Shown: piece after piece, positions 2,646 through 44,701 of the stretch
Layout of the letters: every line of letters begins with the position of its first letter
Position numbering within the stretch: the stretch's first letter is position 1
Source: Moniliella sp. 'wahieum'
Lineage: Eukaryota
Length of the DNA: 56,569 bases
NCBI GenBank assembly: GCA_003971905.1
Contig: RSEE01000096.1
Location: 186,001 to 242,569, forward strand
Direction of reading: 5' to 3'
Notes under the pieces: model-generated
What the model was told of the DNA's origin: nothing
What the model saw: only the letters and a program-made list of their open reading frames with translations
Databases searched by the model: none
Translations under genes and position numbers: made by a program

Positions 2646-2673
2646 ACTCAGTACTCAGTACCCAGTACTCACT
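2646..2673. repeat. Quasi-palindromic heptamer array (ACTCAGT)~4
   Basis: actcagt actcagt acccagt actcact read directly. Confidence 0.8.
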
Positions 2674-4870
2674 AGAGATCGAGGCGTAACTTGGAAGCGA
2701 CCTTGCCGGTCAACTTTTTTAGGTGGGGATGCCGACGACGATGAATGGGTTGAGCGAGGACTTGGAGTCGGACGAGTCGTGGAACTGGGACATGCTGCTG
2801 TGGTGATGCGATGGGGTAGCACTCGGGTCAGGAGAATCATTGGACCGGCTCAGACTGCTGGTATCTTGGGACGGACGGGTACTGCTATCGGCCTCGGCCT
2901 TGGGTTCGCTTTCATGCACCACCACCTTTGGCGTAGAAGGCGGATCGACGGTAAATGCTGTCGCACCTTTCTCGCCGGCGGAGGCGCCGTGCTGAACTCG
3001 GACGCGGCGGAGAGGAAGGTATCGTACGAGCGGTTGGGCGAGTCCGAGTTGACCCGTACAAAGTATGCAGACCTTCACTATCCTTAGGTGGCCCCTTGGT
3101 CTTGGCCCGAGCATAGGCGGCCCCAGTGGCAGCAGCACCGCCTGCGGCTGCCTCGGATTTAGCACGCGAGTGCTTGGGTTTGGAAGACGGAGGTGCAGTC
3201 GTCTGTACGCCTTCTACTTCAGCTGCGACGTTTTCCGAGCCATACAGCGCCACCCAATCTTGTGCCACGAGGGCCTTGCGCGTGCGCTCCTCCGCTTGCG
3301 AGACGGAGAGGTTGCCTTGTTCCACATCCTGGATTTCACGCAGATGGTAGGCACCGCATAGCCGCGACCAATAACGTGCCGCCAAGTTGTTCCTCCGTTG
3401 ATCGGCTCGTAGTACCATGTGACACGCCCGTTGCGGTTCAAAACGTGCGAACGGTCAAACAGCGTCGAGCCACGGACATAAGGTTCCAATTCCAAGTGGG
3501 CCACCGAATCTTTTTGGCCAACAAGCGACGTTGCTCAGCCACCTTCTTGTCCCCGCTCTTGGCCCATGTTTGGCTCGCCTTCTCCAGCTCCAACCACAGA
3601 TCGTCCCGCTTCTTCAACCGTTCGTCCCGCTCCGCCGTATCCTTCAGCAAGGCATTGTCGTCCTTGTGTGATTGCGGATAGTGGTACTCGTACTTGGAGG
3701 TTCCCTCAAAGCACTTTGGTACCCGAATCGCAGGCAAGTTGGGCATGGCATCGTCAATGCGCTTGATAAACTGCACTTTGGCCCGCACCACCGGGTCCAA
3801 CATGGGCGCCAACGTTTTCCAAATCCCGTTAAAGATCCAGGGCGCATGGAAAACATAAACCTTGCCCAAGCACTCAGGGTAGTACTTCTCCAGTGCACCC
3901 ACCACATACATGAGCGTGTGCCAGTCCATATTCCTGTTTTTTGTTTGTGTTTTGTTGTTGTTTGATTGAGCAAACCGGTCAGTAATCCAAGGCAGCACCA
4001 CAACAGGAACAGGGACGCACTTAAGCCCAAACCCGTCTAGGTTAAACACGAGGGACACGGTGCCGGCTGGGGCTGCATCAGGTAGCGGTAGGTCTCCATG
4101 GCGTAGAGTACAAAGCGCTCCATCGAAGCGTCGGCTGACCGTTGGTAAGGTGCAGGCGAACGGTAATGTAAATCATCAGCTCCTCCTTCTGAGTCCCACC
4201 ATAAGCAAACACTTTGCCCGAGGTTTGCTGGTCAATCAAGTGGGGGATGGACGCGTTGCCCTCATCACCGGCAAGGATCAAAGACTGCGGCGAGGAGGGG
4301 AATAAGATGTCAGCGATGGCTCACACAGAGAGACTGAGTGACAAATGGGGAGGGTGGGGGGGGGGGACGTACTTCGAGATCGTTGTCCATGCGCCACTTG
4401 AGTGCCGCCGCAAACATGCCGAGCGCTCGGCCCAGGTTCCATTTGCGCGCCCGGAGAAGCGGCAAAACACACTGTCAGCCGTTTCAAACTTGGCCATGTC
4501 CCACAAGCCGCGTTGAATGGCCGTTCCAGAGTAAGCCGTGAGCAGCTCGTTGATGACGGCCGTCGGCCTTGGTCAGTTCCCGTCCCGGCCGTCGCGGTCG
4601 GTAGAAGAACGCGGTGGCTTGGTCTGCGGGCTGGTGGGGGACCCCGGGGACGCGTCGGGACCAGTCCCGTTCTGGATCCAGTCGAACCACTCGGACCAGA
4701 ACTCACGCAGCATCTTCTCCTGGCTCTCATCCAGGTTGCCTGACCGGCCACACAGAAGGGTTAACAGCGGGCCACGGAGGCAAGAGGGAAGAGGCGCAGG
4801 GCAACGTACCAGGATGGCCGGACGGCAGGGGGTCAATCAGGTTGGGAACCTCCTTGAAAGGCGGCGGCAT
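2655..4870 (-). CDS. CRAL-TRIO (Sec14/Csr1-like) phosphatidylinositol transfer protein; spliced, frameshifted, 3' end uncertain
   Basis: GNLDESQEKMLREFW, ADSVFCRF.RARKW, VFNLDGFGLK/NMDWHTLMYVVGALEKYYPECLGKVYVFHAPWIFNGIWKTLAPMLDPVVRAKVQF; ATG at 4870; introns near 3932-4020 and 4280-4372. Confidence 0.9.
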
Positions 4871-6009
4871 GACGATTGCGAGCTCGGAGATGCGGCGGCC
4901 GGCGCTGCAGATGGGCTGCGAGTGGTGGTGGAGGAGGTGGAGGAGGTGTCGTGGCGTGTGCCGTGGTGTGCTGCCAGCACACCAAGAGAAAAACACTTGG
5001 CAGTCGAGTCGTCGGCGGTCCGGCTGTCCGTGGAGCTCAGGCTGAGCAGCGCTCAGCTGAGCGCGCGAGAGTGCTGAGCTGCACAAACCAAAGACGATGG
5101 GGTGACCACTGACCAGTGACCCCGTGCGGCGCAGTGGCTAGTGACGTCGTCAAGGCTTGGATTCCTGTCCGAACCGGCGGGAAGGCAGGCGCAGTCGCAT
5201 GGGACGTGTGACATGCGACGGCCATTCCGTCACCGCGTCGCTCGTTCTCACGTGCGGCGAGGCCAGTTTCACCAGCGACCGCAAGCCTGCGCTGGTTCTG
5301 TTGGGGCACGCGTTGTTTCAACGCACGGCACACGAGTCGCCCCGTGTCACCTGTCCACCGCAGGAGAAGCCGAGTCTGGCCCAGCTGGAGCTACGCTGGC
5401 ATCGCAGACTGAGATCTCACCCTTTCCCCGCCTTGTGCATGAGCGGTTTCAATACTGTTTACGCGTTACGTCGTGAGAAAACGTCTTTCTTCAATTTTAG
5501 CAGAGGGTAGTGAGCATTCCATCCACAGGCGCGGGGGGGGGGAGGAGAGGGCATGTAGGGCTTGGGTGGGTCTGGGAGGGCAGGGAACGGAAGGGGTTGG
5601 GCTACGCAAGCACCGCTTACGGCGCTTACGCTTGGCACTGTTTATCGCTCAACAGCAGCTCCTCCATCTGTACATCAGCTTGCTTAGTGCTTGAAGCGTC
5701 AAAGCCCAATCTTCAATCTTCAGTCTGTAATCAACACAGGGGGAGAAGGCGGCTTCCCAATGACCGTCATGGACTGGACGATGCGACGGTGCTGGTGTTG
5801 AATGTGGGGTAGGTGTTAGAGCGTGGCATTTCCCATGACGCGCGTGACGTGGAGCTCGTGGAGATCCTGCCCCCTCCGCCCATACGAGGACAGCAGGCGG
5901 GCCAACAATTGTGCCAATCAATTGCAGTTTTTTTTGTCTTTGAAATGGTGTTTGTTTTTTTTCCTATCCGACGCCATTCCAGCCTTTCCGCCTGGCGACT
6001 TGAAGCTTG

Positions 6010-6024
6010 AGGGTTAGGGTTAGG
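6010..6024 (+). repeat. Interstitial telomere-type repeat AGGGTTAGGGTTAGG (2.5 x TTAGGG)
   Basis: Read directly; lies in a long stretch without a recognisable protein. Confidence 0.8.
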
Positions 6025-6737
6025 TGTTCAGCGTCAACACATTCAACCTGTTCTTGCTGGTCGGGGTAGTAAAGTGTAAGACCGGAGGAACCCAAGGGAT
6101 TGGGTGAAGAACCTCTGGAAATGTAGAGCAATGCAATCGCGATGGTGGTGGTTCCGGTCTAAGCCTTGTGCCACACCTAGAGACAGGGGTTCAGACAAGC
6201 CTGAGTATACACGTGGAGGCTTCGGAGGACAAATCAGGGGTGAAGGGTGATGAGGCGCCTTGGCCTAAGTACGGGACCACGGGTCCCAACATAAAGCCGT
6301 CCGGCATTTCCCAAGGAGACAAGACGGAATGAGTGGTGGGAGGAGGAGACAGTGTCAACATGCTGACTACCTCCCGAGTCGAACCAGTGACCAACCGAAC
6401 AAGACCAGAGGTCCCCAAGCTAGGCAACCAATGGCGATAACATGTGCACCGATGCCGTTTCAAAACCCAACTTGAAACTTGCAACAAATTCTGGGACGGG
6501 GGAATCGAGTCATCGCGTTTTAGACGTTTCCCTACACAGAGTGCTGAGGTAGTGAGCGCTGAGGGGATCACACATTAATCACATGGAGGCGGTCGGTTCA
6601 ACTGAACGTTCAGCGGCTTAGCGCTTATGCCCGTCTTCTGTTGCCGGTACCCGGTGTGTTACAGGCACCTGGCAGGCACGGGCGCACTGCGTGCTGCTGA
6701 ATTAGTAATGCATGGGATGGTCGGTGAGCGGTGGATG

Positions 6738-6791
6738 ATCGATCGATAATCGATAATCGATAGCCGGATAGCGCTACTCGATACTCGATAC
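6738..6791. repeat. Degenerate heptamer array around ATCGAT (GATAATC / GATACTC)
   Basis: atcgatcgataatcgataatcgatag...tactcgatactcgatac. Confidence 0.7.
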
Positions 6792-9295: not shown

Positions 9296-11514
9296 ACGTG
9301 GCATTCGTTTAGGTTGTCCGATGGTCCCTGTCAATTTTGTTCCTGCCCGCCGCTCCCGTCTCGCTACTCGCTACTGGTTCCGTCTTTCCGATTTGGGCTC
9401 CGCGCCCTGTTTCGTCTCTTTGCGCCCGTTGGTCTCTCTGATGCGTCGGGGAGGGTTGTAATGATCCTCCCTCGGTGCCTGCTCCGCTCTTGTCCGCTTC
9501 TGCGACCTGTTCTCGCCCGCCTCGTTCTTCCTCCCCTCTCTGGCTTGGATCGTTGGGTCCTCTGGGTTCTCTGGCATCTATGGGATCTCTGGGTTCCGTC
9601 TGATCCGATCCGATCTGATCTGATCCGCCCTTGTGGCCTGTTTGTCTCCCTCTTTGCGCGTCTCGTTGCGACGAGCCATCTTTCTCTTTTAGCCCGACAT
9701 TACGATGCATGCATGGCAAGTGCTCCTTTGTAGTCTAGGCCCGGCCTGGGCCTAGCTTCCCTCTCTCACCACTCTCACTCTCGCACCCCACACGTAGGCT
9801 GAGTCGTCTCTGACCCTGCCCCACACACTCCTTATTCCCTCCCCCCCTTTCGCCCTTTTCCCTCCTATCCTCACGTCCTCTCTTGCCACGCAGCGTCGCA
9901 TGTCTGCCTTGGAGGCAAGATGCTTGTTGTACTTCTCTGTCCTAAGCTGTGCTTTGACCTCATCTGGTTCCGTATATGTAGTGGGCTGTATGCTAGTCTT
10001 TTTCCTTTGATGCGTAGGCTTGCTACGGGCTGCCACTCGCCCAGGCATGTCGTATGTGTCGTGTGCGACCCAGGGGAGCTACCGTGGCGCGTGACGACCG
10101 TGGCAGGCGCCACGGACCACGGTGCACATGTCGGCGTCACCGCGTACGAGCTAACGACGTAGGACAGTACTGGGTCAGTCCTCAGGCCTCAGCCCTCTGT
10201 CGTACTGAACCCTGTATTCGGTCCTCAGTCTGAGGACTCAGTACTGAATACCCTGAGTACCTCAGGACTCAGCACGGCCGAGTACACAGGAACCGTCGCC
10301 CCGACCACCCGTTCTCTCCCCGGCCGTGAGCGTGCCGGTGCGTTGCGGCTGTCACGATGAGAGGGAGTGGGGTAACTGCGTTCCCACGGTCCCCATCGTC
10401 CGTGGCTCGGCTCGGCGGCTAGGTCAGTATTCAATGTCAATGATGTGGCCCTCTGGGCGTGGGCATGAGCGTGGGCGGGCCAGGCTCGACCTGGCACCAG
10501 GGAGGCATTCGACGGTTGAGGTTCGACGTTCGAGCCTTCCGCGGCCCAGACCACCATCCCATGTTGCTGGCTGGCAAACGTCAAACTGGCACTGACACAC
10601 GTCCCATGACACGAGGCGGGCACAGAAGGCGGCAGTGTCGACACCATGAAGCATCGGCTACATCCTTGTGGAGGGAGACAGAACCTGAGAGCGCGTGAGG
10701 ATGATTCGAGCATGTCGGACCGATCGGTGGGTTCTACGGTTGCGATATGTGCCGATACCCCGGCGCGTACCGGATGGGGCCAGGGCAGGCAATGCGATGC
10801 TGCGATGCATTTCGAGCGGGATGGGAGATGGGAGATGGGACACGACGGTATACGTGGTTACAGAAGCGGGTAGGAATCGAATGTCAAGCATGTCAAGGGT
10901 CGATATGCGATAGGGATATCGACAGGGGGGGAACGTTGCTGGTCTGACACTGGCCCCATGTTGTTCGCCTAGAGTAGCCCATATGGGTTGGGCTGAGGGC
11001 CTGGGTTGGCCAGCTGAGGCGGTGGGTGAGAAAGATGGAGAGGGTGGCCGGTGATATAGGTGATAGGTGATGCATGATGCATGGTGTCAAGTATGCATGA
11101 TGCATGATAGCGCAGGGGGGCTGCCGTGGGCTGGGCTGGCCATGTGACATGTGGCATGGCACGTGACATGCGAAGACAGTGACGCCGTGGGGGTGGATGT
11201 GTTGGTCGGGCGGGCTGCCGGTGGGCGCAGAAGCGGTGTGGCACGGGGCTAGTGTACTGTGCCGGCAGTGCGCTGCTGTGCCTGCCTTGTCTGGTGCTCC
11301 CCCGCCCCTGCTCTGGCCAGAGGCAGCGGCGACAAGGCAGGTTACCGGTTAGGCTAGGCCTTAGGCCCTAGGCTAGGCTGGTGCTCCACTGGAAATTTCT
11401 CACACCCAGCACGACTTGCTGCCGCCTTCCGCTTCCGTCTTCCCCCTTTCCCTTTCCCTTTCCCACCGTCTTCCCTCGGCTGCTGGGCCTTTCCGCCTCG
11501 CCGCCTGCCCGCCC

Positions 11515-13416: not shown

Positions 13417-14156
13417 CCAAGACTGGACGAGAGCGCGTGGGTAGAGTTGGCTTGAGCTGGTGGAGCGGTATGGGATGGGATGGGACGGCCTACCCCCGCG
13501 ATGCGCTTGTTTGCTTGTTTGTTTGTTTGCTTGCTTGCTGCGCTACCTACCCCCGACCCGCCCCACCATCTCTTGTGTTCCTTCGTCCCTGTCGGAGCCC
13601 GATCCCAGCCCCAGTCTGTCTCCCTGTTTCCCCCCCTTCCGTTATCGTTATTCTAATCGCCTGGGCGGCGCACTGCCTTACTGCCTCGCCGGGCTCGCTG
13701 GACGGTGGGTGCGACTGGGTCGGCCCTGAGGCTCAGCCCTGAGGCTCAGGGGCTGAGGTCAAGGCTCAAGGCTCAGACTCAGACTCAGGCTCAGGCTCAA
13801 GCTTGAGCTCAAGGCTCTTGTGCCACCTGGCACCCTGCTGCCCTGGTCCCTGGTCCCCTGCTTCCCTCTTTTGTGCAGCCTTGCTTAGCTTCCCTTTGCC
13901 TGGGCTTGGCTTACCGCGTCGCTGGAACGAATTGAATCGTGGTACGCATGATCCATCCTGTCTGCCCTGGCCTGGCCTGGCCTGGCCTGGCCTGTCTTCC
14001 CCCCCTCTCTCCATGTGCTCCCTCGTGCGTTTGTTCTCGTTGCATGCCTGTTGCTCCTTGCCGCACCCCTCTCAACTAATGTACTCGTGTCGTTTCCTGC
14101 TCGCTTGGCCCTGGTAGCTTGGATGGGAAGACTGGAACGTGAAATGAGGCCTGAGG

Positions 14157-14178
14157 TGAGTACTGAGTACTGAGTACT
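14157..14178. repeat. Quasi-palindromic heptamer array (TGAGTAC)3
   Basis: tgagtac tgagtac tgagtac t. Confidence 0.85.
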
Positions 14179-15024
14179 TGAGGTGAGCACTCAGACAGAG
14201 TGGTGAATGGTGCCAAGATGCAAGATGGGAGATTGATTGCGGATGGCCGCGGCGCCAGCCTGGGTGATGGAGGTGCGCGTGACGCGTTGTGTTGTGTTGT
14301 GTTGTGCTGTGTTGCCGTCCGGACAGTGTTGGAGCGTGACGCGTTCAACCTGCCTCGGGGGACTACGGACGAGGGACTGGGGGTTGGATCGTCGATAGGC
14401 GTCGAGTGAGAGAGTGGGGGGCAGCCCACACGCCGATCCTGGTTCTGCGTACTCAGTACAGTCGGAGTACTCAGATGCAGGGGGATGCCCATGCATCCGC
14501 GGACGCAGAAGGGGGGACCGCACCATGCTGGCGCGGCGGCGCTGTGGGGCGGGGCGACCGGTGACGCTGGCCAGGTGCGCTGGTGGGGGGATCTGTATCC
14601 AGGAGCACAGAGACAAGGGTGCGCCCCCCCTTCCCCCGTGCAGCTTGCAGGGCGCAGGCCAGGCACGCGCACACTCAGGCACACGGGCGCTGCGCAGGCG
14701 GTTGAACGTTGAAATGTGACATGTGACATGGGCTAGCACGCCGGTGCTCGGAGGCGACGCGTGGGCTGCGCAGAGCACTGCCCCCTGCGCCGTGGGCGCT
14801 GCAGCGGCGGTCCCCCGGTTTTCGGGTGTCCGCGTGACGCGTAGGTGGCAGGCGGAGGGCCGAGAGTGGCCAGGTGCGCCTCGATCCCATGTCACACGCC
14901 AGTCGTCTGTTTTTCCCGCCCCTCGAGTGGTTTGTTTTTGTTGGTTGGTGGTTGGCGGCCGCCGGCGCTGCTTCCCCCCCCACCGCCTCCGCTGCTTCTC
15001 CTTCTCCTTTGCCCCCGCACGCCC

Positions 15025-17039
15025 ATGGCTGTCCTTGCGCGCGCCACCCCGCCCCGCCCGCGCGCCCACTCCGCCCCCGCCAGGCCCGCTCCTCCGACGC
15101 TGCCTCTGGCCACGCCTCCCCCACCACCAGCAACCAGGGCGGCAGTGGCGACGACCCCTCCACCTCCGCTTCCACCCCCGGCGACAACGGCGGCCAAACC
15201 ACCTCCCATTCCAACCCCGGCGGCAGTGGCGGCACCACCACCGGTGGCAACGGCGGCAACGGCGGCGGCGGTACCACCTCCACCAACCAGGGTGGCACCA
15301 CTACCAATGGTGGTGCCGGCAATGGCGGTACCACCTCCGATCCCTCGCCCACCTCCCGTCCTACATCGGGCAATGGCAGCGGAAACGGCGGAGGCAACAC
15401 CTCGGCCAATCCCACTTCGACGGGCAACCCCAATACGCCTACGTCTACGCCTACGCCTACGCCTACGCCTACGCCTACGCCTACGCCTACGCCCTCCACC
15501 TCGCCACCCTCGAGCCCTACGCCAACCACGTCCCCGTCCAACGGGGGCGGCGGAGGCGTTACGCGCAGCACAGTCACCACCCAGGTGATCATTACCCCCT
15601 CTGAGACCAGCGCCGCTCCTACCCAAACCACCGTCGTTATCTCCACCAGCACGCCGGCGGCACCGACGTCCACCCAGCAGTCCCTATCCACCTTGTTTGA
15701 AACCAGCTCCAGTTCTTCCTTTGTCACGGACACGGTCACTTCCACCTCCCACTCCTCTGAGTACGTTTTCTTTTCTTTTTTTCTTTTTTTCGTTTCTTTG
15801 TTTCTTTCTTGCCTCCTTCGCAGCCCTCTCATCCCTCTGACTTGTCCCATTCCTAGCAGCAGCCCAGCGAGCACAGGCAAGAGCGTGGTGACCTCAGTCA
15901 AACAGGTCACCATTACCTCTTCGCTCGACAATGGCGGCACGACGCTCATCACGTCATCCAGCACGCTTTACACGCAGAGCACCGCGACTGGCTCCTCGTC
16001 CAACGGCTTCTTCTCCAACCACGGCGCTGTGGGCGGAACGTTTGCCGCGGTGGGCGTAGTGGCGTGCGTGCTGCTCGGTCTGCTGGTGTGGCTCTTGGTG
16101 CGCAAACGCCGGCAGCACCGTATGGACGCAGACATTGTAGCTGCGACAACTGCCGGTGCCGCGGCGACCCGCCAACCATTTGACGACGACGACGACGATG
16201 ACTTTGCATTGGAAGATCCTGAGATGAGCGGGCCCGGTGGCGCAAGTACGTCCGACCCACGGTTCGCCTCGGGCAGCTTGCTCCCGCAACTCGGACCTGG
16301 ACCCCACGGCGCATACAGCGACTATGGCGCATACACTTCCCCGGGCCGCACGTCCCCTGGCAACCCGCTCGGCTCGATGACCTACTCCGACTCCCCCGCC
16401 GCTCCGTACGGGTACGATCCCTATGCGCTGTACGATCCTGCCGGCGGGCACGGCCCAGGAGGCGCCGCGACGGCGGCGGGTGCCGGTCTTGCGGCTGGCG
16501 TGGGCGCAGCAGGCGCAACGGGGGTTACGGCCGCAGGATCAGGATCAGGTTCGCAGAGCCATAGCTACCACACGCTTTCTGCCGAGGGGGGGTACGCGAC
16601 GCCAAGTGGGTACCCTGAGCTCGGCGGGGCTTACGGCGCCGCCGCCCCGCACCCACCACCACAAGCGTATTACCCTTACCCGTCTCGGGACGGGTACGGT
16701 GTGCCGGGCGATACGGCTGCGGGCCAAGCGGCCGGACAGGCGTATGCCGAGCCTCAGGCGTCCTATTCCACCCACAGCACCCATGTCGGTCCCACGGCGC
16801 CTAGCACGCCTGGCCCACACGCTGCCGGTCTGCCCGTGTCCGTCTCTGTGCCTGGGACTGGGCTCACGCAGCCCGAGACGGAACTGGCGCCAGGTACGAT
16901 GTCCTCGATCCCCCCTGATGCGAGGCACATGTACGCCTCGCCGTCGCCTGAGATGGGCTCGGGTCCGACCACGCTCGATGCGGCCCATGTCATGTACGAA
17001 GATGGAGACTCGTTCACCAAGACGCACGTGTCGGGCTAA
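15025..17039 (+). CDS. Ser/Thr/Gly-rich single-pass membrane protein, Mid2/Wsc-like cell-wall sensor architecture; start uncertain
   Basis: ORF 14874-17039: long S/T-rich ectodomain with (TP)n, TM segment GGTFAAVGVVACVLLGLLVWLLV followed by RKRR, Tyr/Pro-rich tail; intron 15761-15856. Confidence 0.75.
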
Positions 17040-17130
17040 CGTGCCCCCCCCACCGTGCCCCTTTCTTTTGTTTGACTTGTTTGTTTCGTTCGGGTTCTTT
17101 TCGTTTCCTTTCATTTCGTCTGGGTTCGTC

Positions 17131-17426
17131 GCGTTGCGTTGCGTTGCGTTGCGTTGCGTTGCGTTGCGTTGCGTTGCGTTGCGTTGCGTTGCGTTGCGTT
17201 GCGTTGCGTTGCGTTGCGTTGCGTTGCGTTGCGTTGCGTTCGTTGCGTTGCGTTGCGTTGCGTTGCGTTGCGTTGCGTTGCGTTGCGTTGCGTTGCGTTG
17301 CGTTGCGTTGCGTTGCGTTGCGTTGCGTTGCGTTGCGTTGCGTTGCGTTGCGTTGCGTTGCGTTGCGTTGCGTTGCGTTGCGTTGCGTTGCGTTGCGTTG
17401 CGTTGCGTTGCGTTGCGTTGCGTTGC
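17131..17426. repeat. (GCGTT)n microsatellite, about 59 copies
   Basis: Near-perfect pentamer run with one 1-nt deletion near 17240. Confidence 0.98.
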
Positions 17427-18297
17427 ATTGGGCGCGACGCACGGTGAACGTTGAAGCTTTGAAGACGCTTGCCGCTCCCCCTTGGACCACTTGGTTGATC
17501 CCGTTACGCTTCTCTTCTGGAACCCGGTGCCGGTGGGTCCCCCGGTACCCCCATCTACCCCCCATCGACCCCCCATCGACCTTAAGCCTTACCCTTCCTG
17601 GTGCATCTTATGTATTTTCTCTCACCCCCCCCTGCTCTGCTCTCCCCTCCTCCCCATCGCCTACCCCACCCTTGCTCATCCACGTCTTTTTTGCGCTGCT
17701 GCACTTGCGCTCTTTTTAGTTGGACGGTTGCTCGTGTCACATGTCACATGCCATTCTCTTCTCATTCTCTCATTCTCCTTTGTCCCATTGTCCCATTGTC
17801 CCATCCTCCCATGCTCGGAGCGGCCTGCGTCGGATTGGGTCTGGTCAGTCGGGTCAGGCCCAGGTGGAGCCCCCAGATGCCGGTGTGGCACGGCGTCCGA
17901 CGTGGCCAAAGGAGGGTGGACAGACGTAGCAGGCGCAGGGCGCGCTGGCCAGTCCCCCGTTGCATTCAGCATTCAGCCACTAGCCGCCAAAGCAGGCCGA
18001 AACAAACACCTACTTGCTGGGCTGGAGATGCTTACGTACAGGCTGTAGGGGTAGCACACGATGGGCTATGCGATGCAGAACATCAAATTTCAAACGACGG
18101 CCCCAGGCAGTTTGCCATTTTTACTCGCTAGGATTGGGCAGGCAGGCAGTAGCAGTAGGGTTCGACGCACCGCCCTGCACGTCCAGCCTGCAGACGGGAG
18201 CCCAGGCCAGCGCCCGAATCACCAGCCCATCCCATCCGCCGTTCCTACTCTTGGCCTCCCGCCTCACACCCGCCCTTCCCGTCTCGCCTTTGTCCCC

Positions 18298-21495: not shown

Positions 21496-22047
21496 GGGCT
21501 GTGTGTGCTGACCGAGGGCGGCGCAGAGGAGCGGAGGCTGCTCTTGTCTCTGCCACGCACCGATGAGGCCGGTTGTAATCTGTACCATACCTGCCATCTC
21601 ATGTGCTTGGCTGGGTGGGGGTGGGTTATCCGCAACGGGGCAAGGGAAGGGTAGGAGCGTGGAGCGGGGTAAACGGTAGACGCGTGCTCTCGGAGAGGTT
21701 GGCTGTACATGTTACAGCGGACAGACAAGCGGCTGGGTCGCAACGCGAGCAGTCGGAGCAACGCGTAGCGATTGCCAATGGCACCAGCGAGCAGTGGCGC
21801 CGTGCCCCGCCGCTGAGCTTATCCAGCCGTCGGCTAAGGCGGCGGAGCAGCGGAGAGAACAGTGGCCCTGCGCCTCACGCCTCCCCCAGCAGCGGCCCCC
21901 CACCAGACAGTGGCGCCGTGCCTCCGCGGGGGCAAGCGCTGTGCGCTGCAATTTCATTTCCTCCCGCTTCCGCCGCGGGACGGCTGGACGACGCCCCGCC
22001 CGCCCCGCCAAGCATCTGCCGCGCCAACCCCGCCGCACCCGCCCCCG

Positions 22048-22105: not shown

Positions 22106-22112
22106 CCCCTCC

Positions 22113-24074: not shown

Positions 24075-24939
24075 GCCCGCCGCAGCCGGACGTAACCTGA
24101 CGCAGCCGGACACAGCAATAAGTCTGGCCTTGGGTATGTGTCTGTGCCTGCGCCTGTGCCTGTGCCTGCGCCTGTGCCTGTGGCTATGGGCTATGCCTGT
24201 GCCTGTGCCTTGTGCCTTGTGCCTTGGCATCCATCCCATCTCTAGTTCCCCGGTCCCCCGCCGCCGGCGCTATGGCATTGGCTCTGGGCTTTGGCTCTCC
24301 CGCTGGCCCAACTCGGGTCTCAGCCCGCTGTCCTCTGTCCACTGTCCTCTGCCCTTTGTCCTCTGCCCTTTGTCCTCCGTCCAGGGCAGTGGTAGTGGTT
24401 TGACCCAGCCCTTGTCGGCCTGCCCCCCCCCCCTCTCCTGGCGATCCATCCCCCTTTTAACATCGGATCCGGTCCTACTGCACCACCCGCGCCACGCAGG
24501 TTGCGTGCATGGTCTGGTGCACGGGGAGGACCGCTTGCTAGGCATACCCTCTGCTTTGTTTCCCCCCTGGTTTGGTTGATATGTTGACTACGTTGGCTTG
24601 GCCAAGCGTACCCACCCGCTCGTTTTCACTTGTTTTCACCCGCTTTCCCTCGTTTTCCTACCTTTCTTGCTACTATCCACATGCTATTCTCCAGGGCCAA
24701 GCCAGGGCGGCGATAGACGTGTTGGTGGGGCGGCAGAGGCGCGTATAGCATCGGCGATAATCGATAAGGGGTCGCTAGGTCGCTGGGCAAGCGGGAGTCC
24801 AGGAGTGTCACGTGACGGCCACGTAACGAGGCAGCGCAGGAGAGCACTCGGTCCGTCTGCGCCCCCGCACCACCATCTCGTGTCGGCGTCTTGTGGTTGC
24901 GTCGCGTGTCTTCCCCATCCTCGTCTGCTGCGGGGTGCC

Positions 24940-29206: not shown

Positions 29207-30448
29207 TAGGCACTAGCCACTAGGCACCAGCAGCGGGGCGGCGGAAATGCACACAGCAATTCCGCTGTCATTTAACCAGCCTTCTTCATTCGCGGCGGAG
29301 CGCAGCAGTGCCTTGCGCGTGTTGGCCTTGAGGGTGGGCGGGAACGCTGATGCTCAACCAAAGCAAAGCGGCTTGGAAACCAGACTCCTCTCAACTGTTG
29401 GGGACTATTTGTGTGGGTCATCAGCCCCACATTTTCCCACAGTAAACTGATTACATGCGAGCTATTACACCCCAACCGCATATACTCTCACAGTGTGGTA
29501 CTCCCTCTCCGACCTGCATCGAATACATCCCCCCCTGCCCATCTGGAAATCCCTTCTCTTCCCCCGCACTACGATGACAGGGTAGAATCATGTTGGTGCA
29601 TTGGAACCATCGATCAGTTCTCCCTTGGACATGAATTCTCAGCAAGTATAGATATCCTTTTTATATGACGGTTGGTATATATCTCGCTTCTTTCCCTTCA
29701 AATAAGCCAATGCGAGAGACAGCAGCCCAGCTTCCTTTTCCTTGTACGGCGCTTACCAGTTACTGCTCGAACCTTTGTGACACGCTTCATCCCCTCTTGC
29801 GACGGCTGGCTCTCTTACTTTGCCTCTGTATGATGTGTCCTTCTCTCTTCCGTGGAATTCAACCTAGAACGGCACCCCGAACTATAGGCAAGCACTGCAG
29901 GTCGGACGTCGGTGTTCTTCATGAGACGGACGGGGCGTGGGGAGAGCGCCGTGATGGATCTTTGGGTGGTGGTCGGTTACCGTTACGAATTACCGGCTGG
30001 TTAGGTTGGAGGTGGATCCCTGCTGGACAATTACGAGAGTGGATCCAGCTGGAGACGTTCGTACGTCCGAGACCAGCAGGCCACCGAAGTGGGGCAGAAT
30101 AGTGATTCAATGCTCGATGGGTTCGATTCGTGAACACGAAAAAGGTGTGGGGGCGGCAGACGAAACTCTATGTAATCTCGTATACGGGTGTCCTATTCGG
30201 CTCGTGCCAGAGGCCCATCAGCCACTGGGGCCGTCCGCTTGGCTATGCTTCGCTTGGGGTTGTTGTTGTTGGGGGGGGGGAGGGTGCGAACGATTGGAGG
30301 GCCTGGCTTAGACGCGATCTGTGCCTGACTGTGTATTATTGCTCTGTCGACAAGCAAGATGGTCGAGGTCAATGATCGATGATCGAACTGGACTGATGTG
30401 CATGATGCATGCTGCTTCGGACATTTGAATGGAAAGGATAGAGTGAAC

Positions 30449-30467
30449 CTTGAAGCTTGAAGCTTGA
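30449..30467. repeat. Quasi-palindromic heptamer array (CTTGAAG)~2.7
   Basis: cttgaag cttgaag cttga. Confidence 0.8.
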
Positions 30468-32807
30468 TATTGATTGACATGTGATGTGTGATATGTGACC
30501 TGTGACATGTTGCATTCGACAAACGACACATGACAGGTGTGTGACACACATGTGACAAGGAACAAGACACAAGACAAAGGACACGGCGCAAGGGACAGTG
30601 GCAGTGCGAGCGACGCATTGCTGGCAGGTGGCAAACCCAGATCGGTCCGGCTTGGTTACGCGGTGTTACGCATGTTGCGATACGCCTTGGGCAGTCGGCT
30701 ATCTAACCCGTTCCAACGTGCCACGACATCTCAGGTAGGCCCTAGGGATCTGCGATCTCCACCACGCCACGAGGGAACCAACCGCGGCAGCCGGGGGGCC
30801 GGTGCACCGATCAGTTCGATCGATGCTCGACAGTCGGTAGTCGGTAGTCGATAGTCGGTAGGTTGATGGCCGATGGTCGCGTGGACGAGTCGATGGAGCG
30901 TACAGTGTACACTCGCCTACACACGTACCTCCTCGTTTTGGCTTGCTCGCTAGCACAGAAGGCTGGGGTGGTTGAGGAGCGTCGAGGCGTATAGCTGCTG
31001 GGCCGCTGAGCCTATGCGTCTTACGTGCAGGATAGAGAGAGTTACCCATTACTACTTCGGTGCGCACCGGTTCCCGTACCACGTTATGCGTGGCTGTATC
31101 GCTCTGGTGGCCAGGCATGGGTACGCGGTTACGCGTGACGCGTGACGTGGCTAGCGTGGCCAGCGTGGCCGGTGGCCGATGGCCGGGTGGGCACAACTCA
31201 ACTCAGTACTCATTGTGTACTGAGTCCCCACACTTCCAGGTCGAAGGGACAAGCGATGGCCCGATGGGTGGGTGGAGCAGGTATGGAGTGTGCATCGTGA
31301 GCGGCAGAGTGCCGATCTGGGCCGACCCCACGCTTCAAAGCTTCAAGCTTCCAAAGCTTCCCAAAGCTCAAATCGCTCAAGGGCGGTGGATGCAAAGCTT
31401 GCAGCAAAGCTTCTGCGTCTCGCTGAGAAGAAACTGTCGTGGCGGATTTGGCGAAGCATGGGCTAAGGGGACAGGCATGGTCGGATACGCATGGTGTATG
31501 GGCTTGGCTTGGAAGCTGGGGGGGGGGGGCAGAATGGGGGGGGGGCTGGGGCTTGGGGAGGTGAGGAAGACGCTCAGTACAGCCACAGTACCCAATTACT
31601 CTCAGGGCGGGTAAGCTGTGGTGAGCCGCGCTGGGCGCCCAGGCTGAGCCCCTCGCTGGCCTTACCGGCTCACCCGAGTCCTGAGGCCTGAGGCTCAAGC
31701 CTGAGGAAGACGGGCACGGGGGTGACCGGTGATCACATCACTTGCTGGCCTGATTCAATATTCATCCTCGTGCAATGACTGATGCAGATGATTGATGATT
31801 TCCATTTGGGGGTCGGGTGGAATAGCCGGGCACGGCGCACGACGCCTGGGCTGGTTGGATGGAAGGATGGGGACGTAGGGGGCCAGGGCGGGCAGGGGCG
31901 GGCACCGGGCTCCTGGTTCATCTTGTGTCAGAACTCAGATCTCAGTCTGAGATCTCAGAGCCCGATGCACGGCCCAGGCGTGGCACAGTGGGGCAGGACG
32001 CCGCACTGGCCCTGCCTGGCGCTGCTTCGGTTGGGCTGCGCACCCGCAGCTAAGTACCGGCAGCAAGTGCCTGTCAGTGGCTGCGAGGCAGTGTCTGCAA
32101 GTGCCTAGAAGTATCTCGGGGCCACCTGGAAGTGCCTGTACCATGTAAGTACTTGCACGAGCCATCTCCATCGTTGAACGTTGAACATTGACGGTGGGGC
32201 CAGGGCCCAGATCTCAGAAGCTGCCACCAATGGGTGTGGTGGCGTCAGGCGTCAGATCTCACATCGCCCGTCTCACATCTGCCCTGCGGCCTCCAGCCTC
32301 CGCGTGTCCCCAGCGACCGTCGCACTTCCACATCCCACACCTCCGGGCTTGCGCCCCCCATGGCCCGAAGCGGGAAATTACACGCCACTGCCCCCGTGCC
32401 TGACCTGCCCCGCCACTCGCCACTGGCGTTTGCCACAGCGGCACTGTGCCTGCCTCTGTGGCTCTGCTGCGCTGGCTGCCCTGCTGCCTGTGTCTGTGGG
32501 CGGGGGGTTAGTACTTAGTGGGGTCGTGCTATCCCGCAGCCAGAGCGCAGCCCCTCCGATTCCATCCCCTTCCAGCCCCCTCCCTCCCCGCCCATCCCGT
32601 CTCCTCCTTCCCCTCCCCTCCCCTCCCACCCTCCCCTCCGCTGTATGCGCGTTGCGCCCGCTGTGCCCCGCCCTCTCGACACACGCCTGCCCCCGCCGCC
32701 CCCACCACATCCCCGTCTCCCCCGTCCCCTCCAACCAACAGCAGCCGCAGTCCAGCTCCCTGCTCCGTCTGCCCATATATATCCCACCCACCAGCCCCAT
32801 CGCCCCC

Positions 32808-35258: not shown

Positions 35259-35322
35259 GATCTTGGATCTCCCATCTCAGATCCCCAACCTCGGCTCTCC
35301 AACCTCGGATCTCGGCTGATCA

Positions 35323-35349
35323 ATCTGAGATCTGAGATCTGAGATCTGA
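35323..35349. repeat. Quasi-palindromic heptamer array (ATCTGAG)~3.9
   Basis: atctgag atctgag atctgag atctga. Confidence 0.88.
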
Positions 35350-35507
35350 TCCCGATGCAACCACCTCCCCTGGCTATCCTGCCTTGCTGATGCTATCTTC
35401 TTTGCCTCTATAACGCTCCACCCGTCCCTCGTACGACTCACAGTTGGGGCAACCAACTTTCCCGTTTGTTTCGTTGTTGCTCTCTCCAAACTCTTCAAAC
35501 CCTTCAA

Positions 35508-35563
35508 TTCAAGCTTCAAGCTTCAAGCTTCACGCTTTCGCTTCAAGCTTCAAGCTTCAAGCT
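35508..35563. repeat. Two adjacent (AAGCTTC)3 heptamer arrays
   Basis: ttc aagcttc aagcttc aagcttc acgctttc gcttc aagcttc aagcttc aagct. Confidence 0.88.
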
Positions 35564-38130
35564 CCACACTTCACCGACTACACCCATTTTTTTACCCTAC
35601 CCTATACCTTGTCCATGTACATGTACATGTATGCACCGTGGGTCGTCTATGCACCCTGGGTCTCGCTTTTCCCCTCCTCTCTTCCGTTTTGCCCTTTTCC
35701 AATTCCCTTTTGGCCCCCCGCTTTCCCAGCGCCTGTTGCTCGACTCCTCTCTGCTGCCTCCCCTCGCTTTGAGGCAGATCTACCTTGCTCTGTCCTTTTT
35801 CTTCTCCCTACTACCCCCCCCCCCTCCGCTCTCCGTGCTTCAGCTTCATTCAGCTTCTGAACTTCTGAGTTTCAGCCCCTTTCTTTCTTCCCTCCCGCTT
35901 TGCCCCACTCTTCCATGTCTTGACCTAGTATCCTGCTGGCCTGCTAGCCTGCTAGCCTGCTGCGCGCTGCCTGGATCGGGGATCGCAGATCGAATGAGAT
36001 CAAGATCGGGTTCTGAGATCGGATGATCCAGCCCCTCATCCTTCTTCTCTCCTTTGGGAGGGGGGGGAGCCATAGGCCATATACCACGTACCGCCATCTC
36101 TACATCATCGCAGCCGCACCTTGCCGGACGGCGTTACGCGTAACTAGTGACTATTAGGGACTGCTACGACTCGTGTGGCTAATAATGCAAATAATGTGCC
36201 TCCTGCCTCCTTCTCGTCCTCGAGTGCTCAGCCTGCGCTCAGACTGAGCTCTCAGCTCTCAGCGCGCTGAGCCTCAGGCTTCAGAGCTTCAGGGTCTGAG
36301 TGCGGAGATCGGAGATCCACGGGCCACGGCAGTCTATCGATCCGCGACACGGACGCAAAGGGACTGTCGATTGTCGATTGCATAAATCCCTGGGGGTGGG
36401 GTACATACACAATCGTTCACATACACATACGCTTACACATACGCATACACATACGCATACACATACCATGCACATACACACACTCTCTCGAACTCTTCTT
36501 TCTCTCCAGTACTTGCCGAACAAATAACACTGCTGCGAAGAGGGGGTGGTCTTCGGCCTGCTTCGGCCCAGGGACTAGGGACTAGGGAGTAGGGGCCGGT
36601 GATCGGTGGCTCGTGGCTCGTCTGTTTTGCCTTGTTTTGGCCTGTTTAGCCCCTCCCCCACTTGAGCCGGTGGTGGACCAGTTGACTCTCTTGTCTGGCC
36701 CTTAGGCCTTATTGCAGCTTGAAGCTTGAAGCCTGACCGGTGACCCCAAGGGCGGCTAAACGGTAGAAGCTTAGCGCTCAGCATATTCATACGTTCCTGC
36801 AGCTGGTGGGTAACTTTAGCTTTATGCGTGACGCTTTAAGCTCCTTGCATGTTACACCAGCGGTACGCATTCCGTGTGGCATGGCAGGCCGAAGATAAAC
36901 GCCTGCACGTGCACACACACAGCACGCCCGATGCAAAAATACAACACACACATGTGCCCGCTGGCATCCATGCGCCCACCCTGCTCCCCAATCCACCCAC
37001 GGCAGCCAGGAGAGCAGACAGGGAGACGAAGCGATGGGAGGGGACGGTGTAGTCGGTCGCTGTCTGAGATGTGCTGACTATAGTGACTTGGGGTAGGATG
37101 GCGTGGTGGGTGCGGAGAGTGTGTAACCGGTAACTGGGAAGAAAAGGCCACAGGGCAGTGGATGGACCATGCAGCGTGCGGTTGGATCGTCCCGGCTGAT
37201 GGGTGCGACCGAGGATGGGGCGTGCATGGATGGGGTATGTATGTCTCGCCTTGACAGGGGGAAGCGAGGGGTGCAAGTGCCATGTGCCATGAGCCATGTG
37301 TCAGCATGCCATGTGCCATGCTGGCCTCCTGCATCCTCCCCCCCATGCGCCATACTCCTTAGGACACAGGCCCCACGCCCCACGCCAGCCCCTCGTCCAT
37401 CGGCTTGACATTTCAACTTGCACCATCCCCACCTAACACTTTCAATCTCAGATCTCACCGTTCACCTCACCGTCCACCTTGGTTCGACAGAGCATCCGCC
37501 ATCGACGTCTGAATCCGACCGCTGGTCTCATCTTCTCTCTCTCGGCCACCCAGATCATCGCAGGAAACGCACCACCCCATACCCCTGCAGGAACACGCAC
37601 TTTTTTTTGCGCCTTCCCTTCCATGTCCCCAATCCAGGGGCAGGTACGCTCCTGCCCCGCTCCCCTCCCGCCGCTCCCTAGCAACCTAGTATCCACTTCC
37701 CTCCCAAATGGTTTCTAATGGGCTGTGCTCATCCAGACGAGCTCCGCATCCATTGCACATTATCTCGGCCCGAAAACTTCATCCGCCACCAAAGACAGCT
37801 AACACCGTCGAACCGTGGCAAAGGCGCCGTTGTTCTTTCCTCTGCGCCCGATACCAGCGCCAACTATGAAAGAAGAATGAGAACCTGAAAGTGTGCAGTG
37901 CGCGCTTCGCACTCACGATGGATGCATGAGAGAGGCTTATTCTTTCTCGCCTAGGATACATGTATAGTGCGGCGCTGTGCGCTGACAGCGCTGACAAGAC
38001 AAGAGACAAGAGTCCAGGAGTGTATTAGCTACAGAGAAAAGATGTCATCGGCCCATGGGCGTGCTGCGGAAGAACAAACTGCATCATCGCATTTCTTGAA
38101 TTGAGACGCCAAGCTACTACACTATGTAGA

Positions 38131-41100: not shown

Positions 41101-41669
41101 GACTGGTAAGATGGACCCGGTTCTGGGCCAGCACTTCAAGGAAAACGGTGGGGTGCAATGTGGAAAGGGGCGCCAGTGGGAATCCTCACAGGCGATGGTG
41201 AGCAGTTCAGGGAGGTAGCGACTCACCACAGGGGCACTGCAGTGGGGGAACAGTGAGCGCGGCCGAGTTGCCCCATGTGGCGCGTACGCTGGGGAAAAGC
41301 TGTTCAGCAAGACGCGGACGGTGGGAAAGACCGGTGTGCCAAAGAGCATGGCGTGTACGCCAGGACAGGTCGCCCTGAAGCGCCGTGGCAATGGCCTGGT
41401 CGGACACGCGCGGCGGCGTAGCAGCGCGAGAGCAAGGCGCTGGATGTGGGGGTCGGGGTGGGAAAGATGGGCGTGGATCCAGGCTGTGTTGTGCACGGCG
41501 CAAGCGCGATGGCGGCCATGTATTGCTGGTCCGCATCGCCGTCTTGGAGCTGATCGATGAATGCCTGTTGCTGGCCTGGTGCGAGGGCGGACGGTGCGGA
41601 CGGCGTGAGCGATACGCTCGGCGGGGTGCAGTTGGGGAGGGGGGAGAGAGGGGGGACGGCAGCGGACAT
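38131..41669 (-). CDS. Large (~1,180 codon) uncharacterised alpha-helical (HEAT/ARM-like) protein, many frameshifts
   Basis: Protein-like ORF fragments from MSAAVPPLSP (41669) through NAKVSSRKTAVRIGARYL..DLHPHVHAVII to WSPAALQLVRTLRCHPALDVRALAYDI..* (38131). Confidence 0.7.
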
Positions 41670-41989
41670 GGCGGTGGCGCGGCGCGGCGGAGAGGATGGG
41701 GTGGAGGGTGGAGACGGCGGGACAGCCGCCGGAGAAAGAGCGACGGTGGATATAACACCCTCGTGGGCGTCGCAGCCAGCCGGTCGCGGCCACATGGAGG
41801 GACAGGCGGGAGGGGGATTGGAAGAACGTCGCGACTGTGACGACTCGGATGATTAGGATGGCTATAGAATGGCTAGGATGATCGATGACAAGGGATCACG
41901 CCCTGGGTCGATCCAGTTCAGTGGAGCACGCGGAGGACTGGATGACCGAATGACGTCGAGAGTGACTAGAGTGACTCGATGAAGGTGGG

Positions 41990-42010
41990 GTTCAACGTTC
42001 AACGTTCAAC
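41990..42010. repeat. Quasi-palindromic heptamer array (GTTCAAC)3
   Basis: gttcaac gttcaac gttcaac. Confidence 0.9.
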
Positions 42011-42930
42011 CTGTATTGGATACTCGATCGCTGCGCTCCGCCTGAGCCCTTTTCCTTTTCCCTGGCTTTGCATTTGCATTTGCGTTTGCCTTTGTTACTC
42101 GCCCGTCTGGCTTTTGGCCCAATAACGTCAGCCAGTCGACCTAAGATCATCGAGTCTGCATCATCACCTTGTGTTAGGCCTGAGGCTCAGGACGAACACT
42201 TTTTGCCACTCTACCTTTTTTGCCACCGCAGTGGCAAAAAGATCCGGATCACCCAGGCACAGGAATGCCTTTGGGGTGGACTGCACTGGAGTGCGCCTCC
42301 TCTGCTGCCGCGAACCACAGCCGGGCAGACTGCGGGGCAATCTGCAAGGTCTCGGCCTGAACGCCAAGATCATCACCATACCCTACGATTCAAGAGCTTC
42401 CCTTTCGGCCCTTTCCCCCCCCGGTTTGTCGTCCCCTATGATTGCATCCAGGGTACAATATGCTGCCGAGAAGATAACTGGATGTTCCCAGCCGATTCCA
42501 TCACTCTCCCCTGTGTTAATTTCGCTGTTAATTCACTGGGCCACACTCAGGTGGCTCCCCCAGCTATATGAAATGACAGTCCTATTCTCACACGATGTAT
42601 CGCAGCCATGGTTCTCATCCTTGTGACGAAGGATTTTCCTCGCTCCATGGAGACTGTAGTGCCCAAGTACCACTAGTGTGACTACGCAAAAAAAGATCCG
42701 AAGCAGCGAGGAATGACCATTGCTTCCGATCGTGCAAGGCATAGGGACCGCACATGGACACCAAAGCGGAATATGGGCATAGTATGCGCTGGCTGGGCCA
42801 GCGATTTTGGGAACGAGAGAGATACACGCCTCCCCAACCAGACAGGGACCAAAAGCAACCGAAGCAGAAAAACGAGCAGGCGACGTGGCGCTCGTTTTCG
42901 GTTTGGTCCAAGCACCACGACAGCCAGAGC

Positions 42931-43955: not shown

Positions 43956-43974
43956 GGTGGGCTACAGTCGACAG

Positions 43975-44050
43975 CTGGAGGCGTGGGTGGGGGCGGGGGG
44001 GGCAGGCAGCGTCAGCACCGACGGTCGGGGCAGCAGGACAGGAGACGCAC
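43975..44050 (-). other. Probable 5'-UTR intron of RPS4
   Basis: GTGCGT donor at 44050, GCTGAC branch site, pyrimidine tract and CAG acceptor at 43975, 19 nt before the ATG. Confidence 0.7.
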
Positions 44051-44120
44051 TTGCTGGTGGGTGGGCAGCAGACGCGCCAGCACGGCCCGCAGCGGGGGCG
44101 CTGTGCTGGGGGCGCACCCA

Positions 44121-44201
44121 CACTAGGGTTGCCCGCTGGGTCGCACTGCGCAGGCAGGCACCTGCCGCAGCTGGCGTGCGCAATAATCCCCCACTAGGGT
44201 T
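44121..44201 (-). promoter_or_regulatory. Two AACCCTAGTG (telo-box/Tbf1-like) sites upstream of RPS4
   Basis: CACTAGGGTT on + strand at 44121-44130 and 44192-44201. Confidence 0.6.
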
Positions 44202-44680
44202 CGCCTCTGTGTGTTTGTGTGGAAAGATGCCCGTTTGAACAATAGGGATGCAGGGGGCCCAGTTGCAAGTTTCCATTCCTGCGGCGGCCGATTACACACA
44301 CCTCACATGTGATGACCCTTGCCACATGTTGCCACTCGTCACAGCGGTCTGCGCCTGATGGGGTGACGTCATCCGCCTTAATTTTTCAGCAGCCAGGGTC
44401 GTGCCAAGCAGCGGAGGGGTGCGCACGGGGGCAGCCATTGTGACGGCCGCTGCCCGGACTTACCTTTTTGGGGGGAGGCTGGGATATGGCAGGATATGGC
44501 CCCACTATCGTCTCTGGCCCCCGGCGATCCGGCCTGCTGCTACGGGGCCAGTGGGCGGTGGGAGTGTGTGGCACCAGGGGGCAGCAGCACGTGCGGACCA
44601 GCAGGCCTGGCCCTGGTGTCGCTGGCTGCCTGGCCAGTCTGGCGCTTGCGCGGCCGCTGCGCGAGGCATGCGTCATGGTG

Positions 44681-44701
44681 AGTCACTAGTCACTAGTCAC
44701 T
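44681..44701. repeat. Quasi-palindromic heptamer array (AGTCACT)3
   Basis: agtcact agtcact agtcact. Confidence 0.9.

Follow-up and report, generated by a model that had tools for sequence, protein, structure and literature searches.

Palindromic heptamer repeats in non-coding DNA of Moniliella as probable excision scars of a cut-and-paste transposon

Introduction

Cut-and-paste transposons of the hAT, Transib, RAG and MULE groups are described as leaving hairpins on the flanking DNA, which are opened by host enzymes and joined to leave footprints (PMC5499845). The footprints reported for Ac/Ds in yeasts bear palindromic (P) nucleotides, Pso2 is assigned a role, and the centre of the footprint palindrome is given as the complement of the base beside the element (PMC5873905). 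Here, we describe a dense set of short repeats with a period of 7 bp in a 56,569-bp stretch of the Moniliella sp. 'wahieum' genome (assembly GCA_003971905.1, contig RSEE01000096.1, positions 186,001 to 242,569; G+C content 61.7%). This stretch is hereafter called the window, and all coordinates are counted within it. We argue, with a probability that we put at roughly 0.72, that the repeats are scars left at the donor sites of a cut-and-paste DNA transposon, of which the window itself contains no copy.

Canonical hAT elements duplicate 8 bp of target with the consensus nTnnnnAn, members of the PIF/Harbinger and IS5 families use targets centred on T-N-A (TNA or TWA), and the Tc1/mariner footprint consists of TA, nucleotides from the element end, and TA. 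Among basidiomycetes, 7-bp duplications are described for hAT7 of the Pucciniales and for Kyakuja, a KDZ element recorded from five orders of Agaricomycotina, while the same source gives duplications of 3 bp for Harbinger and 8 bp for Zisupton and Dileera (PMC12730594). Duplications of KDZ elements in Cryptococcus are put at 8 bp, or at 4-8 bp, in two preprints (bioRxiv 10.1101/2024.08.15.608186, 10.1101/2025.05.19.654958).

A palindromic spacer between TNA triplets

An earlier note on the window, made from the letters alone, had proposed that many intergenic repeats obey a single rule, TSA (S, C or G) followed by any 4-bp palindrome and again by TSA, with a period of 7 bp. TSA-N4-TSA occurs 90 times in the window and N4 is palindromic in 49 of these sites, close to the hand count of about 45 given in that note. 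Markov models of orders 1-5 (30 simulations each) yield means of 1.63-4.33 palindromic sites and a maximum of 8, so that the expectation of about 2 was a fair one and the enrichment stands against a higher-order background. The individual 10-mers that had been listed are all present, with a single correction (the ATAT site starts at 31755, not 31756), although TCGA at 41551 and 41879 and several copies within arrays had been overlooked. The spacer-length control that had been suggested also comes out as predicted, since TNA..TNA pairs with equal N have palindromic spacers in 51/84 cases at N4, compared with 4/19 at N2 and 2/27 at N6. The TSA-anchored spacers use 14 of the 16 possible 4-bp palindromes.

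While the palindromic 4-bp spacer and the period of 7 hold, the anchor proves to be broader than had been claimed. Palindromic spacers separate TGA..TGA in 25/39 cases, TCA..TCA in 18/30, TTA..TTA in 5/11 and TAA..TAA in 3/4, against 147/2025 for all direct trinucleotide pairs pooled, with no enrichment for other trinucleotides. Because TTA and TAA pairs are also palindromic, the anchor is TNA and not TSA. The frequency of S in the anchors reflects its frequency among TNA sites in general: S is the middle base in 78% of all TNA sites and in 69% of the inferred targets. Tandem TNATNA shows no excess (19 observed, 15.5-22 in Markov models).

The share of TNA+palindrome units among perfect period-7 runs differs with run length. 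It is 19/663 at 10 nt, about the 2.7% that we calculate for random heptamers, 17/102 at 12 nt, 19/58 at 14 nt or more, 18/45 at 15 nt or more, and 8/13 at 19 nt or more. Runs of dyad-symmetric heptamers built on any other core show no enrichment, 13 nt being their upper length, and dyad symmetry at other periods is about at the level of chance. A literature search of limited coverage found no published description of this TNA+palindrome pattern.

The palindrome is copied from the flank

How the products are built, and that they are specific to TNA, can be read directly from the sequence. The basic product is either abTNA-[cd.d'c']-TNAcd or abTNA-[b'a'.ab]-TNAcd, in which the palindrome consists of one flanking dinucleotide and its reverse complement. 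The ends of runs are phased rather than random. Of the 54 runs of at least 11 nt, 13 take the form of the 12-mer TNAxy-y'x'-TNAxy in either orientation, which is the commonest class, and the next class has 4. Direct repeats TNAxy..TNAxy favour a 2-nt spacer, with 37 occurrences against 2-10 at each other spacer from 0 to 8; in 28 of these 37 cases the two spacer bases form the reverse complement of xy, and in only 1 that of TN. The A of TNA is required (72 occurrences, against 2-4 for the other bases), and T precedes in 63 of the 72. When the two TNA copies are compared, with both strands counted, they share the same N in 63/73, as would be expected from a duplication; in 4 the two bases are complementary, and in 6 they differ in some other way. 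The target is thus directly repeated across the joint in two forms, the TNAxy repeats with a 2-nt spacer (37) and the 7-bp nnTNAnn repeats described below (6). Array edges are sharp, since the bases immediately beyond the runs agree with the repeat no more often than background.

Isolated TNA-palindrome-TNA sites were examined for a match between the palindrome half and the adjacent flank. Such a match is present in 28/35 (13 left, 7 right, 8 both), against a chance level of about 12% (binomial P = 6e-20). Templating of the palindrome from the dinucleotide beside TNA favours a mutational origin and is not predicted by a binding model. Of the two explanations put forward in the earlier note, the mutational process is therefore favoured over a protein reading TGA/TCA half-sites. 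The specific process that it had named, template switching plus slippage seeded at the triplet, does not agree with the products, which are a 7-bp duplication with 2 palindromic nucleotides or a single 4-nt palindromic overhang, and no microhomology that would allow a switched strand to return was found at them. The mutational option was thus right in kind and wrong in mechanism, although slippage may still lengthen arrays.

Probable scars with periods of nine and eight

A second class of product consists of a 7-mer nnTNAnn repeated after exactly 2 nt (n = 6). In 6/6 the 2-nt spacer is P-type, that is, equal to the reverse complement of the neighbouring 7-mer end, against 11/132 for control 7-mers with another centre that are likewise repeated after 2 nt. 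These sites, identified by the 7-mer repeat test, are GCTTACG+GC at 5615-5630, TGTCAAG+CA at 10882-10897, GGTGATA+TA at 11050-11065, AATAATG+CA at 36181-36196, GCTGACA+GC at 37981-37996 and AGTGACT+AG at 41961-41976. The period-9 class is a 7-bp duplication with two P-nucleotides and is independent of the period-7 class. No P signature was found at other duplication lengths from 5 to 11.

Three sites with a 5-nt spacer, and hence a period of 8, combine a 4-nt palindrome with one base of the other flank. The palindrome comes first at 17450-17464, and the single base comes first at 31333-31347 and 36279-36293; all three were identified by their fit to the overhang model described below.

Two further period-9 sites lie outside the simple model and may be scars with extra nucleotides. 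They consist of TGA, a 6-bp palindrome and TGA, with CGCGCG at 5836-5849 and CTATAG at 37075-37088.

A model of hairpin opening and end joining

We propose that insertion would duplicate 7 bp of target, abTNAcd, at a symmetric site nnTNAnn with any middle base, and we attribute the period of 7 to this duplication. Excision would leave both flanks capped by hairpins, with the tip exactly at the border between duplication and element, as in chemistry of the RAG, Transib or MULE type, the left flank ending in ...TNAcd and the right flank starting with abTNA.... Host enzymes would nick each hairpin 2 nt 3' of the tip, so that the duplex would stop at TNA on both sides and each end would carry a 4-nt self-complementary 3' overhang (cd.d'c' on the left, b'a'.ab on the right). 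Artemis-type nucleases nick hairpins at this distance from the tip. If the ends were then joined with their overhangs overlapping in full, the product would be TNA-(4-bp palindrome)-TNA, the strand deciding whether the left or the right flank is copied; such a join would carry one palindrome per strand, and the two would separate when the DNA is next replicated. Overlaps of 3 or 2 nt would give spacers of 5 and 6, seen as the rarer period-8 and period-9 scars. The transposon as maker, the 2-nt nicking position and the mode of array growth are what we infer from these products.

The overhang model fits 44/84 sites at spacer 4 (0.66 expected by chance), 3/24 at spacer 5 (0.05 expected) and 6/27 at spacer 6 (0.013 expected). 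At spacers 7 and 8, where P-nucleotides of both sides would be kept, it fits 0/18 and 0/16.

The same scheme offers a route to longer arrays. Each scar would create a new site, d'c'TNAcd, which is a perfect odd palindrome, and re-insertion and excision there would generate identical, mutually complementary overhangs and add one 7-bp unit. Repeated cycles, together with ordinary slippage, would build arrays of 3-4 copies. Places where the palindrome switches in phase (36716-36745 in the window, and 3651-3678 in the metagenome locus L049) are explained by left-type and right-type events at neighbouring TNAs. The minority of sites with complementary N (TGA..TCA) corresponds to what longer P tracts would give.

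Several other geometries were tried and rejected. A 3-bp duplication of TNA with 2+2 nt of the element's inverted ends does not account for 14 different palindromes, each copying its flank. If the palindrome were the duplication and TNA the footprint, runs should end in the corresponding phase, which only 2 do; flanking palindromes are also missing from most single sites. A double-hairpin cut at TN^A predicts a spacer made of the reverse complement of ab followed by that of cd, contrary to the spacers observed. A 5-bp duplication is asymmetric and leaves the period-9 scars unexplained, while an Ac-like hairpin with a 1-nt offset and an 8-bp duplication predicts base-centred palindromes, and no mapping of it fits. 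Quasi-palindrome correction predicts complementary N, which is seen in only 4/73. Scars carrying both palindromes, as spacer 8 would show them, likewise have no example.

Recurrence in metagenome contigs

A metagenome scan for TGA-NGCN repeated three times returned at least 123 stretches, and 120 loci with 547,923 bp were analysed. Among the matches listed, most TGA-NGCN arrays have non-palindromic units (TGCG, GGCG and others), so heptamer arrays are not palindromic as a rule. Five loci among these matches (L019, L021, L049, L058 and L062; 47,336 bp) hold several different TNA+palindrome units, and a kinase open reading frame (ORF) in L049 is 67% identical to Thelephora ganbajun. Within these five Thelephora-like contigs, 22/57 TNA-N4-TNA sites are palindromic, 7/9 isolated sites match their flank, and the overhang model fits 20/57 sites at spacer 4 and 2/44 at spacer 5. 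Although the seed arrays were picked by the search pattern, the other units in the five contigs are independent of that choice. L008 and L033 behave in the same way. The signature thus recurs in Thelephora-like contigs, a second and distant basidiomycete lineage.

The scan also returned repeats of another kind. TGATGCG and similar non-palindromic heptamers form long arrays in many unrelated, mostly bacteria-like contigs (among them L005, L037, L039, L077 and L107), sometimes as inverted pairs. A metagenome contig of 62% G+C (L061) holds, besides a (TCACGCG) array, an ORF for a PhoH-like ATPase that is split by an intein with a LAGLIDADG domain (2474-4876).

Positions of the sites and their surroundings

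The window contains 63 sites, none of which is assigned a strand. Apart from the period-8 and period-9 scars located above, they come from a scan for perfect period-7 runs with an edge check, in which about half of the 11-nt runs are expected by chance. The longest array is TGAGATC, with 3.9 copies at 35323-35349. TCAAGCT forms arrays of 3.6 copies at 35508-35532, 3.4 copies at 35540-35563 and 2.0 copies at 31338-31351, and TGAGTAC has 3.1 copies at 14157-14178. Three copies (3.0) are present of TAATCGA at 6742-6762, TCAACGT at 41990-42010 and TCACTAG at 44681-44701. Shorter arrays are those of TGAAGCT (2.7 copies at 30449-30467 and 2.4 at 36716-36732), TGACATG (2.4 copies at 14714-14730), TGACGCG (2.4 copies at 31131-31147), TGATGCA (2.3 copies at both 11068-11083 and 11093-11108), TCACATG (2.3 copies at 17735-17750), TGATCGA (2.1 copies at 30372-30386), TGAGGCC (2.1 copies at 31680-31694) and TGAACGT (2.1 copies at 32172-32186). 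TCAGTAC at 2646-2661, with 2.3 copies, may be classed as scar or array.

The period-7 scars found both by the run scan and by the isolated-site flank analysis have 1.7 or 1.9 copies. With 1.7 copies, these are TTACGCG at 5459-5470, TGAAGCT at 5999-6010, TTAGCGC at 6616-6627, TTACCGG at 11340-11351, TGAGGCC at 14145-14156, TCAAATT at 18083-18094, TCAGTAC at 31201-31212, TGACCGG at 31721-31732 and 36734-36745, TCAATAT at 31753-31764, TTAGTAC at 32508-32519, TTAGGCC at 36700-36711 and TGATCGA at 41877-41888. Those with 1.9 copies are TCAGGCC at 10180-10192, TGAACGT at 14701-14713, TAATCGA at 24755-24767 and TCAGATC at 37445-37457.

The remaining period-7 scars come from the run scan. TGACATG at 11141-11153, TTAGGCC at 11355-11367 and TGATGCA at 30399-30411 have 1.9 copies, and TGACGCG at 14276-14287 and 14831-14842, TCAGATC at 31934-31945 and TAACCGG at 37123-37134 have 1.7. 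Scars of 1.6 copies are TCAGCGC at 5047-5057 (an 11-nt run), TGAGCGC at 6553-6563, TGACGCG at 14334-14344, TCAGTAC at 14449-14459, TGAACGT at 17445-17455, TCAGATC at 32208-32218, TTACGCG at 36131-36141, TGACTAG at 36143-36153 and TGAGGCC at 42176-42186, as well as two that are possibly due to chance, TTACATG at 21706-21716 and TCACGCG at 53923-53933.

Domains recognised on ORFs of the window include CHS5, Nop, NAD kinase, CRAL-TRIO, KH and SET. The NAD-kinase ORF is nearest to proteins of Ustilaginomycotina (Tilletia 75%, Tilletiaria and Jaminaea 71%, one further match 79%), which places the window in a G+C-rich basidiomycete that has no near relative among recorded sequences. Calls of coding sequence based on G+C content at third codon positions were too weak, and codon periodicity was used in their place; the non-coding status of the repeat sites is defined by this test and not by gene models. 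At 60 repeat sites the codon-periodicity chi-square has a median of 5.3 and a maximum of 12.4, compared with 11.5-34.2 in 11 stretches with Pfam domains, which lends indirect support to the earlier observation that the repeats lie outside coding sequence. The clustering of scars is weakly above random, with 34/63 having a neighbour within 60 bp, against 25.8 +/- 4.7.

Other repeats are common in the window. A pentanucleotide microsatellite, (CGTTG) x 61 with 98% identity, occupies 17127-17430, just upstream of the scar at 17445 and of the KH-domain gene, and a telomere-like (GGGTTA) run of 2.5 copies at 6010-6024, in mid-window, directly adjoins the scar at 5999-6010. Hexamer arrays lie at 15434-15493, (TACGCC) x 10, inside or beside a long ORF at 14838-17036 that has no Pfam match, and at 24137-24224, (TGTGCC) x 14. 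On the minus strand at 55587-56567, an ORF running off the end of the window encodes several CCHC zinc knuckles and may be a GIS2-like cellular protein or a retroelement Gag. Direct repeats of five bases are several-fold more frequent than the approximately 55 expected at each of the periods 5, 6, 7, 10 and 12. Among these many repeat periods, the explanation offered here covers only the period-7 TNA class.

Discussion

A duplication accompanied by palindromic nucleotides at the joint is the standard mark left when hairpins are opened after the excision of a transposon, and the sites described here share several features with footprints of this type. Like the footprints of Ac/Ds, other hAT elements, MULE and Transib, and like V(D)J coding joints, they carry flank-templated P-nucleotides at the joint. 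The target duplication is kept on both sides, as in the hairpin-type footprints described in PMC5499845 and PMC5873905, and the small deletions on the other flank, together with the opening of hairpins and the joining of ends by the host in those accounts, can be likened to the scars here. The scars differ in having a 7-bp duplication with a strict central TNA, in being unusually uniform with exactly 2 P-nucleotides, and in occurring genome-wide at high density, whereas known footprints were seen at a reporter locus. Their palindromes are also even, with the centre exactly at the end of the flank, unlike the base-centred palindromes reported for Ac/Ds, and for this reason the chemistry looks more like that of RAG, Transib or MULE.

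None of the families with a partly matching target accounts for the whole product. Instead of the 8-bp duplication of canonical hAT elements, the scars have one of 7 bp in which position 3 is T and position 5 is A, and where a typical hAT element would leave base-centred palindromes, both the period-7 and period-9 scars have the even form cd|d'c'. Kyakuja and hAT7 match in the length of the duplication only, as that length is given in PMC12730594; Kyakuja elements have the termini CA..TG, and neither element was found in the window. The duplication of PIF/Harbinger is 3 bp in the same source (PMC12730594), whereas the repeated segment here, abTNAcd, is 7 bp and extends 2 nt to each side of TNA; since a 3-bp duplication cannot explain a palindrome that copies the flanking dinucleotide, PIF/Harbinger does not fit. 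Tc1/mariner elements also leave a fixed-length scar in which a short duplication surrounds a small symmetric insert, but that insert is derived from the fixed ends of the element and has one sequence, whereas 14 of 16 palindromes occur here, each templated from the local flank.

Several observations weigh against excision scars as the source of these repeats. First, no transposase domain was found among the 132 window ORFs scanned, and neither the window nor the metagenome loci yielded a pair of terminal inverted repeats bordered by TNA or by a 7-bp nnTNAnn repeat. Second, the strong dominance of the fully overlapped join is undocumented in the literature consulted on footprints, scars retaining both palindromes are absent (0/16 at spacer 8), and one site per approximately 220 bp inside 13.9 kb of array-bearing blocks, which were drawn by hand and post hoc, is a very high density for footprints. 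Finally, 7/35 isolated TNA-palindrome-TNA sites show no flank match, and by our own arithmetic about 11 of the 54 runs of at least 11 nt could be due to chance.

A different possibility is that a host-encoded or domesticated nuclease or integrase makes 7-nt staggered, TNA-centred breaks in open intergenic DNA in a "hit and run" manner. Fill-in would then duplicate 7 bp, and turn-around synthesis or hairpin capping would add the 2 palindromic nucleotides before rejoining. Such an activity would generate the same products as the transposon, and it would account both for the lack of an element in 56 kb and in related loci and for the signature in two distant basidiomycete lineages. We nevertheless consider it improbable. 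It calls for two unusual steps where insertion followed by excision calls for none, and two intact 7-bp copies with P-nucleotides between them (6/6) are the textbook outcome of excising an inserted element. We know of no enzyme that makes TNA-centred breaks in this way.

The repeats could also be structure-driven microsatellites, in which dyad-symmetric heptamers form hairpins at replication and expand by slippage or template switching, so that the palindromes would reflect the units that expand best and not the mode of origin. Short tandem repeats of many different periods are indeed very dense in the window, with 241 rows in Tandem Repeats Finder over 56.6 kb; some arrays reach 3-4 identical units, and slippage could plausibly lengthen an array once two copies are present. 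Against this, heptamers of equal symmetry without TNA stay at background, as does symmetry at other periods. Nor do the repeats behave as slippage products with an arbitrary unit, random end phase and changes by whole units: the phase of array ends is not random, slippage of heptamers cannot yield the period-9 and period-8 products, and non-palindromic units dominate the TGA-NGCN arrays among the metagenome matches listed. Although slippage may contribute to array growth, we regard an origin of this kind as quite improbable, since TNA specificity, flank templating and the period-8 and period-9 products, on which the binding model also fails, find no place in it.

Arrays of binding sites selected in promoters, in which a dimeric protein reads TGA/TCA half-sites every 7 bp across any symmetric spacer, would suit the position of the repeats in non-coding stretches between genes and triplets that presumably resemble bZIP-type half-sites, but are very hard to credit when the middle base is unconstrained and follows availability, the spacer is copied from whichever dinucleotide flanks the site, most sites have 1.6-2 copies with sharp edges, and the same grammar appears at unrelated loci of a distant fungus.

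Excision scars thus remain our preferred explanation, and a bolder extension of it, which we think rather unlikely, is that the scars act as self-reinforcing landing pads. Excision would turn an ordinary nnTNAnn into the ideal symmetric target d'c'TNAcd, and further rounds of insertion and excision would lay down heptamer arrays in promoters, a form of transposon-driven microsatellite generation. If no mobile element is involved, the counterpart of this idea, to which we give the same low weight, would be a host nuclease, present throughout the basidiomycetes, that breaks intergenic DNA at TNA and leaves hairpins in the manner of RAG.

Taken as donor-site scars, the repeats probably belong to a kind of scar already known, in a form that is new, highly regular and highly abundant. 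If so, in a gene-dense region without a visible transposon every 220-500 bp or so of non-coding DNA carries an excision scar, and heavy past transposon traffic would be recorded in tidy-looking DNA and missed entirely by repeat annotation. The rule abTNA[cd.d'c' or b'a'.ab]TNAcd could be used in any genome to map and date such activity, and suggests a family of transposons whose 7-bp target is centred on TNA. The scars would also offer an origin for one class of heptanucleotide microsatellites, and a large natural sample of how basidiomycetes open DNA hairpins, at 2 nt from the tip, and join incompatible ends. They would in addition be a source of regulatory variation, since they lengthen promoters and untranslated regions by 7-9 bp and often place a stop triplet in each of the three frames.

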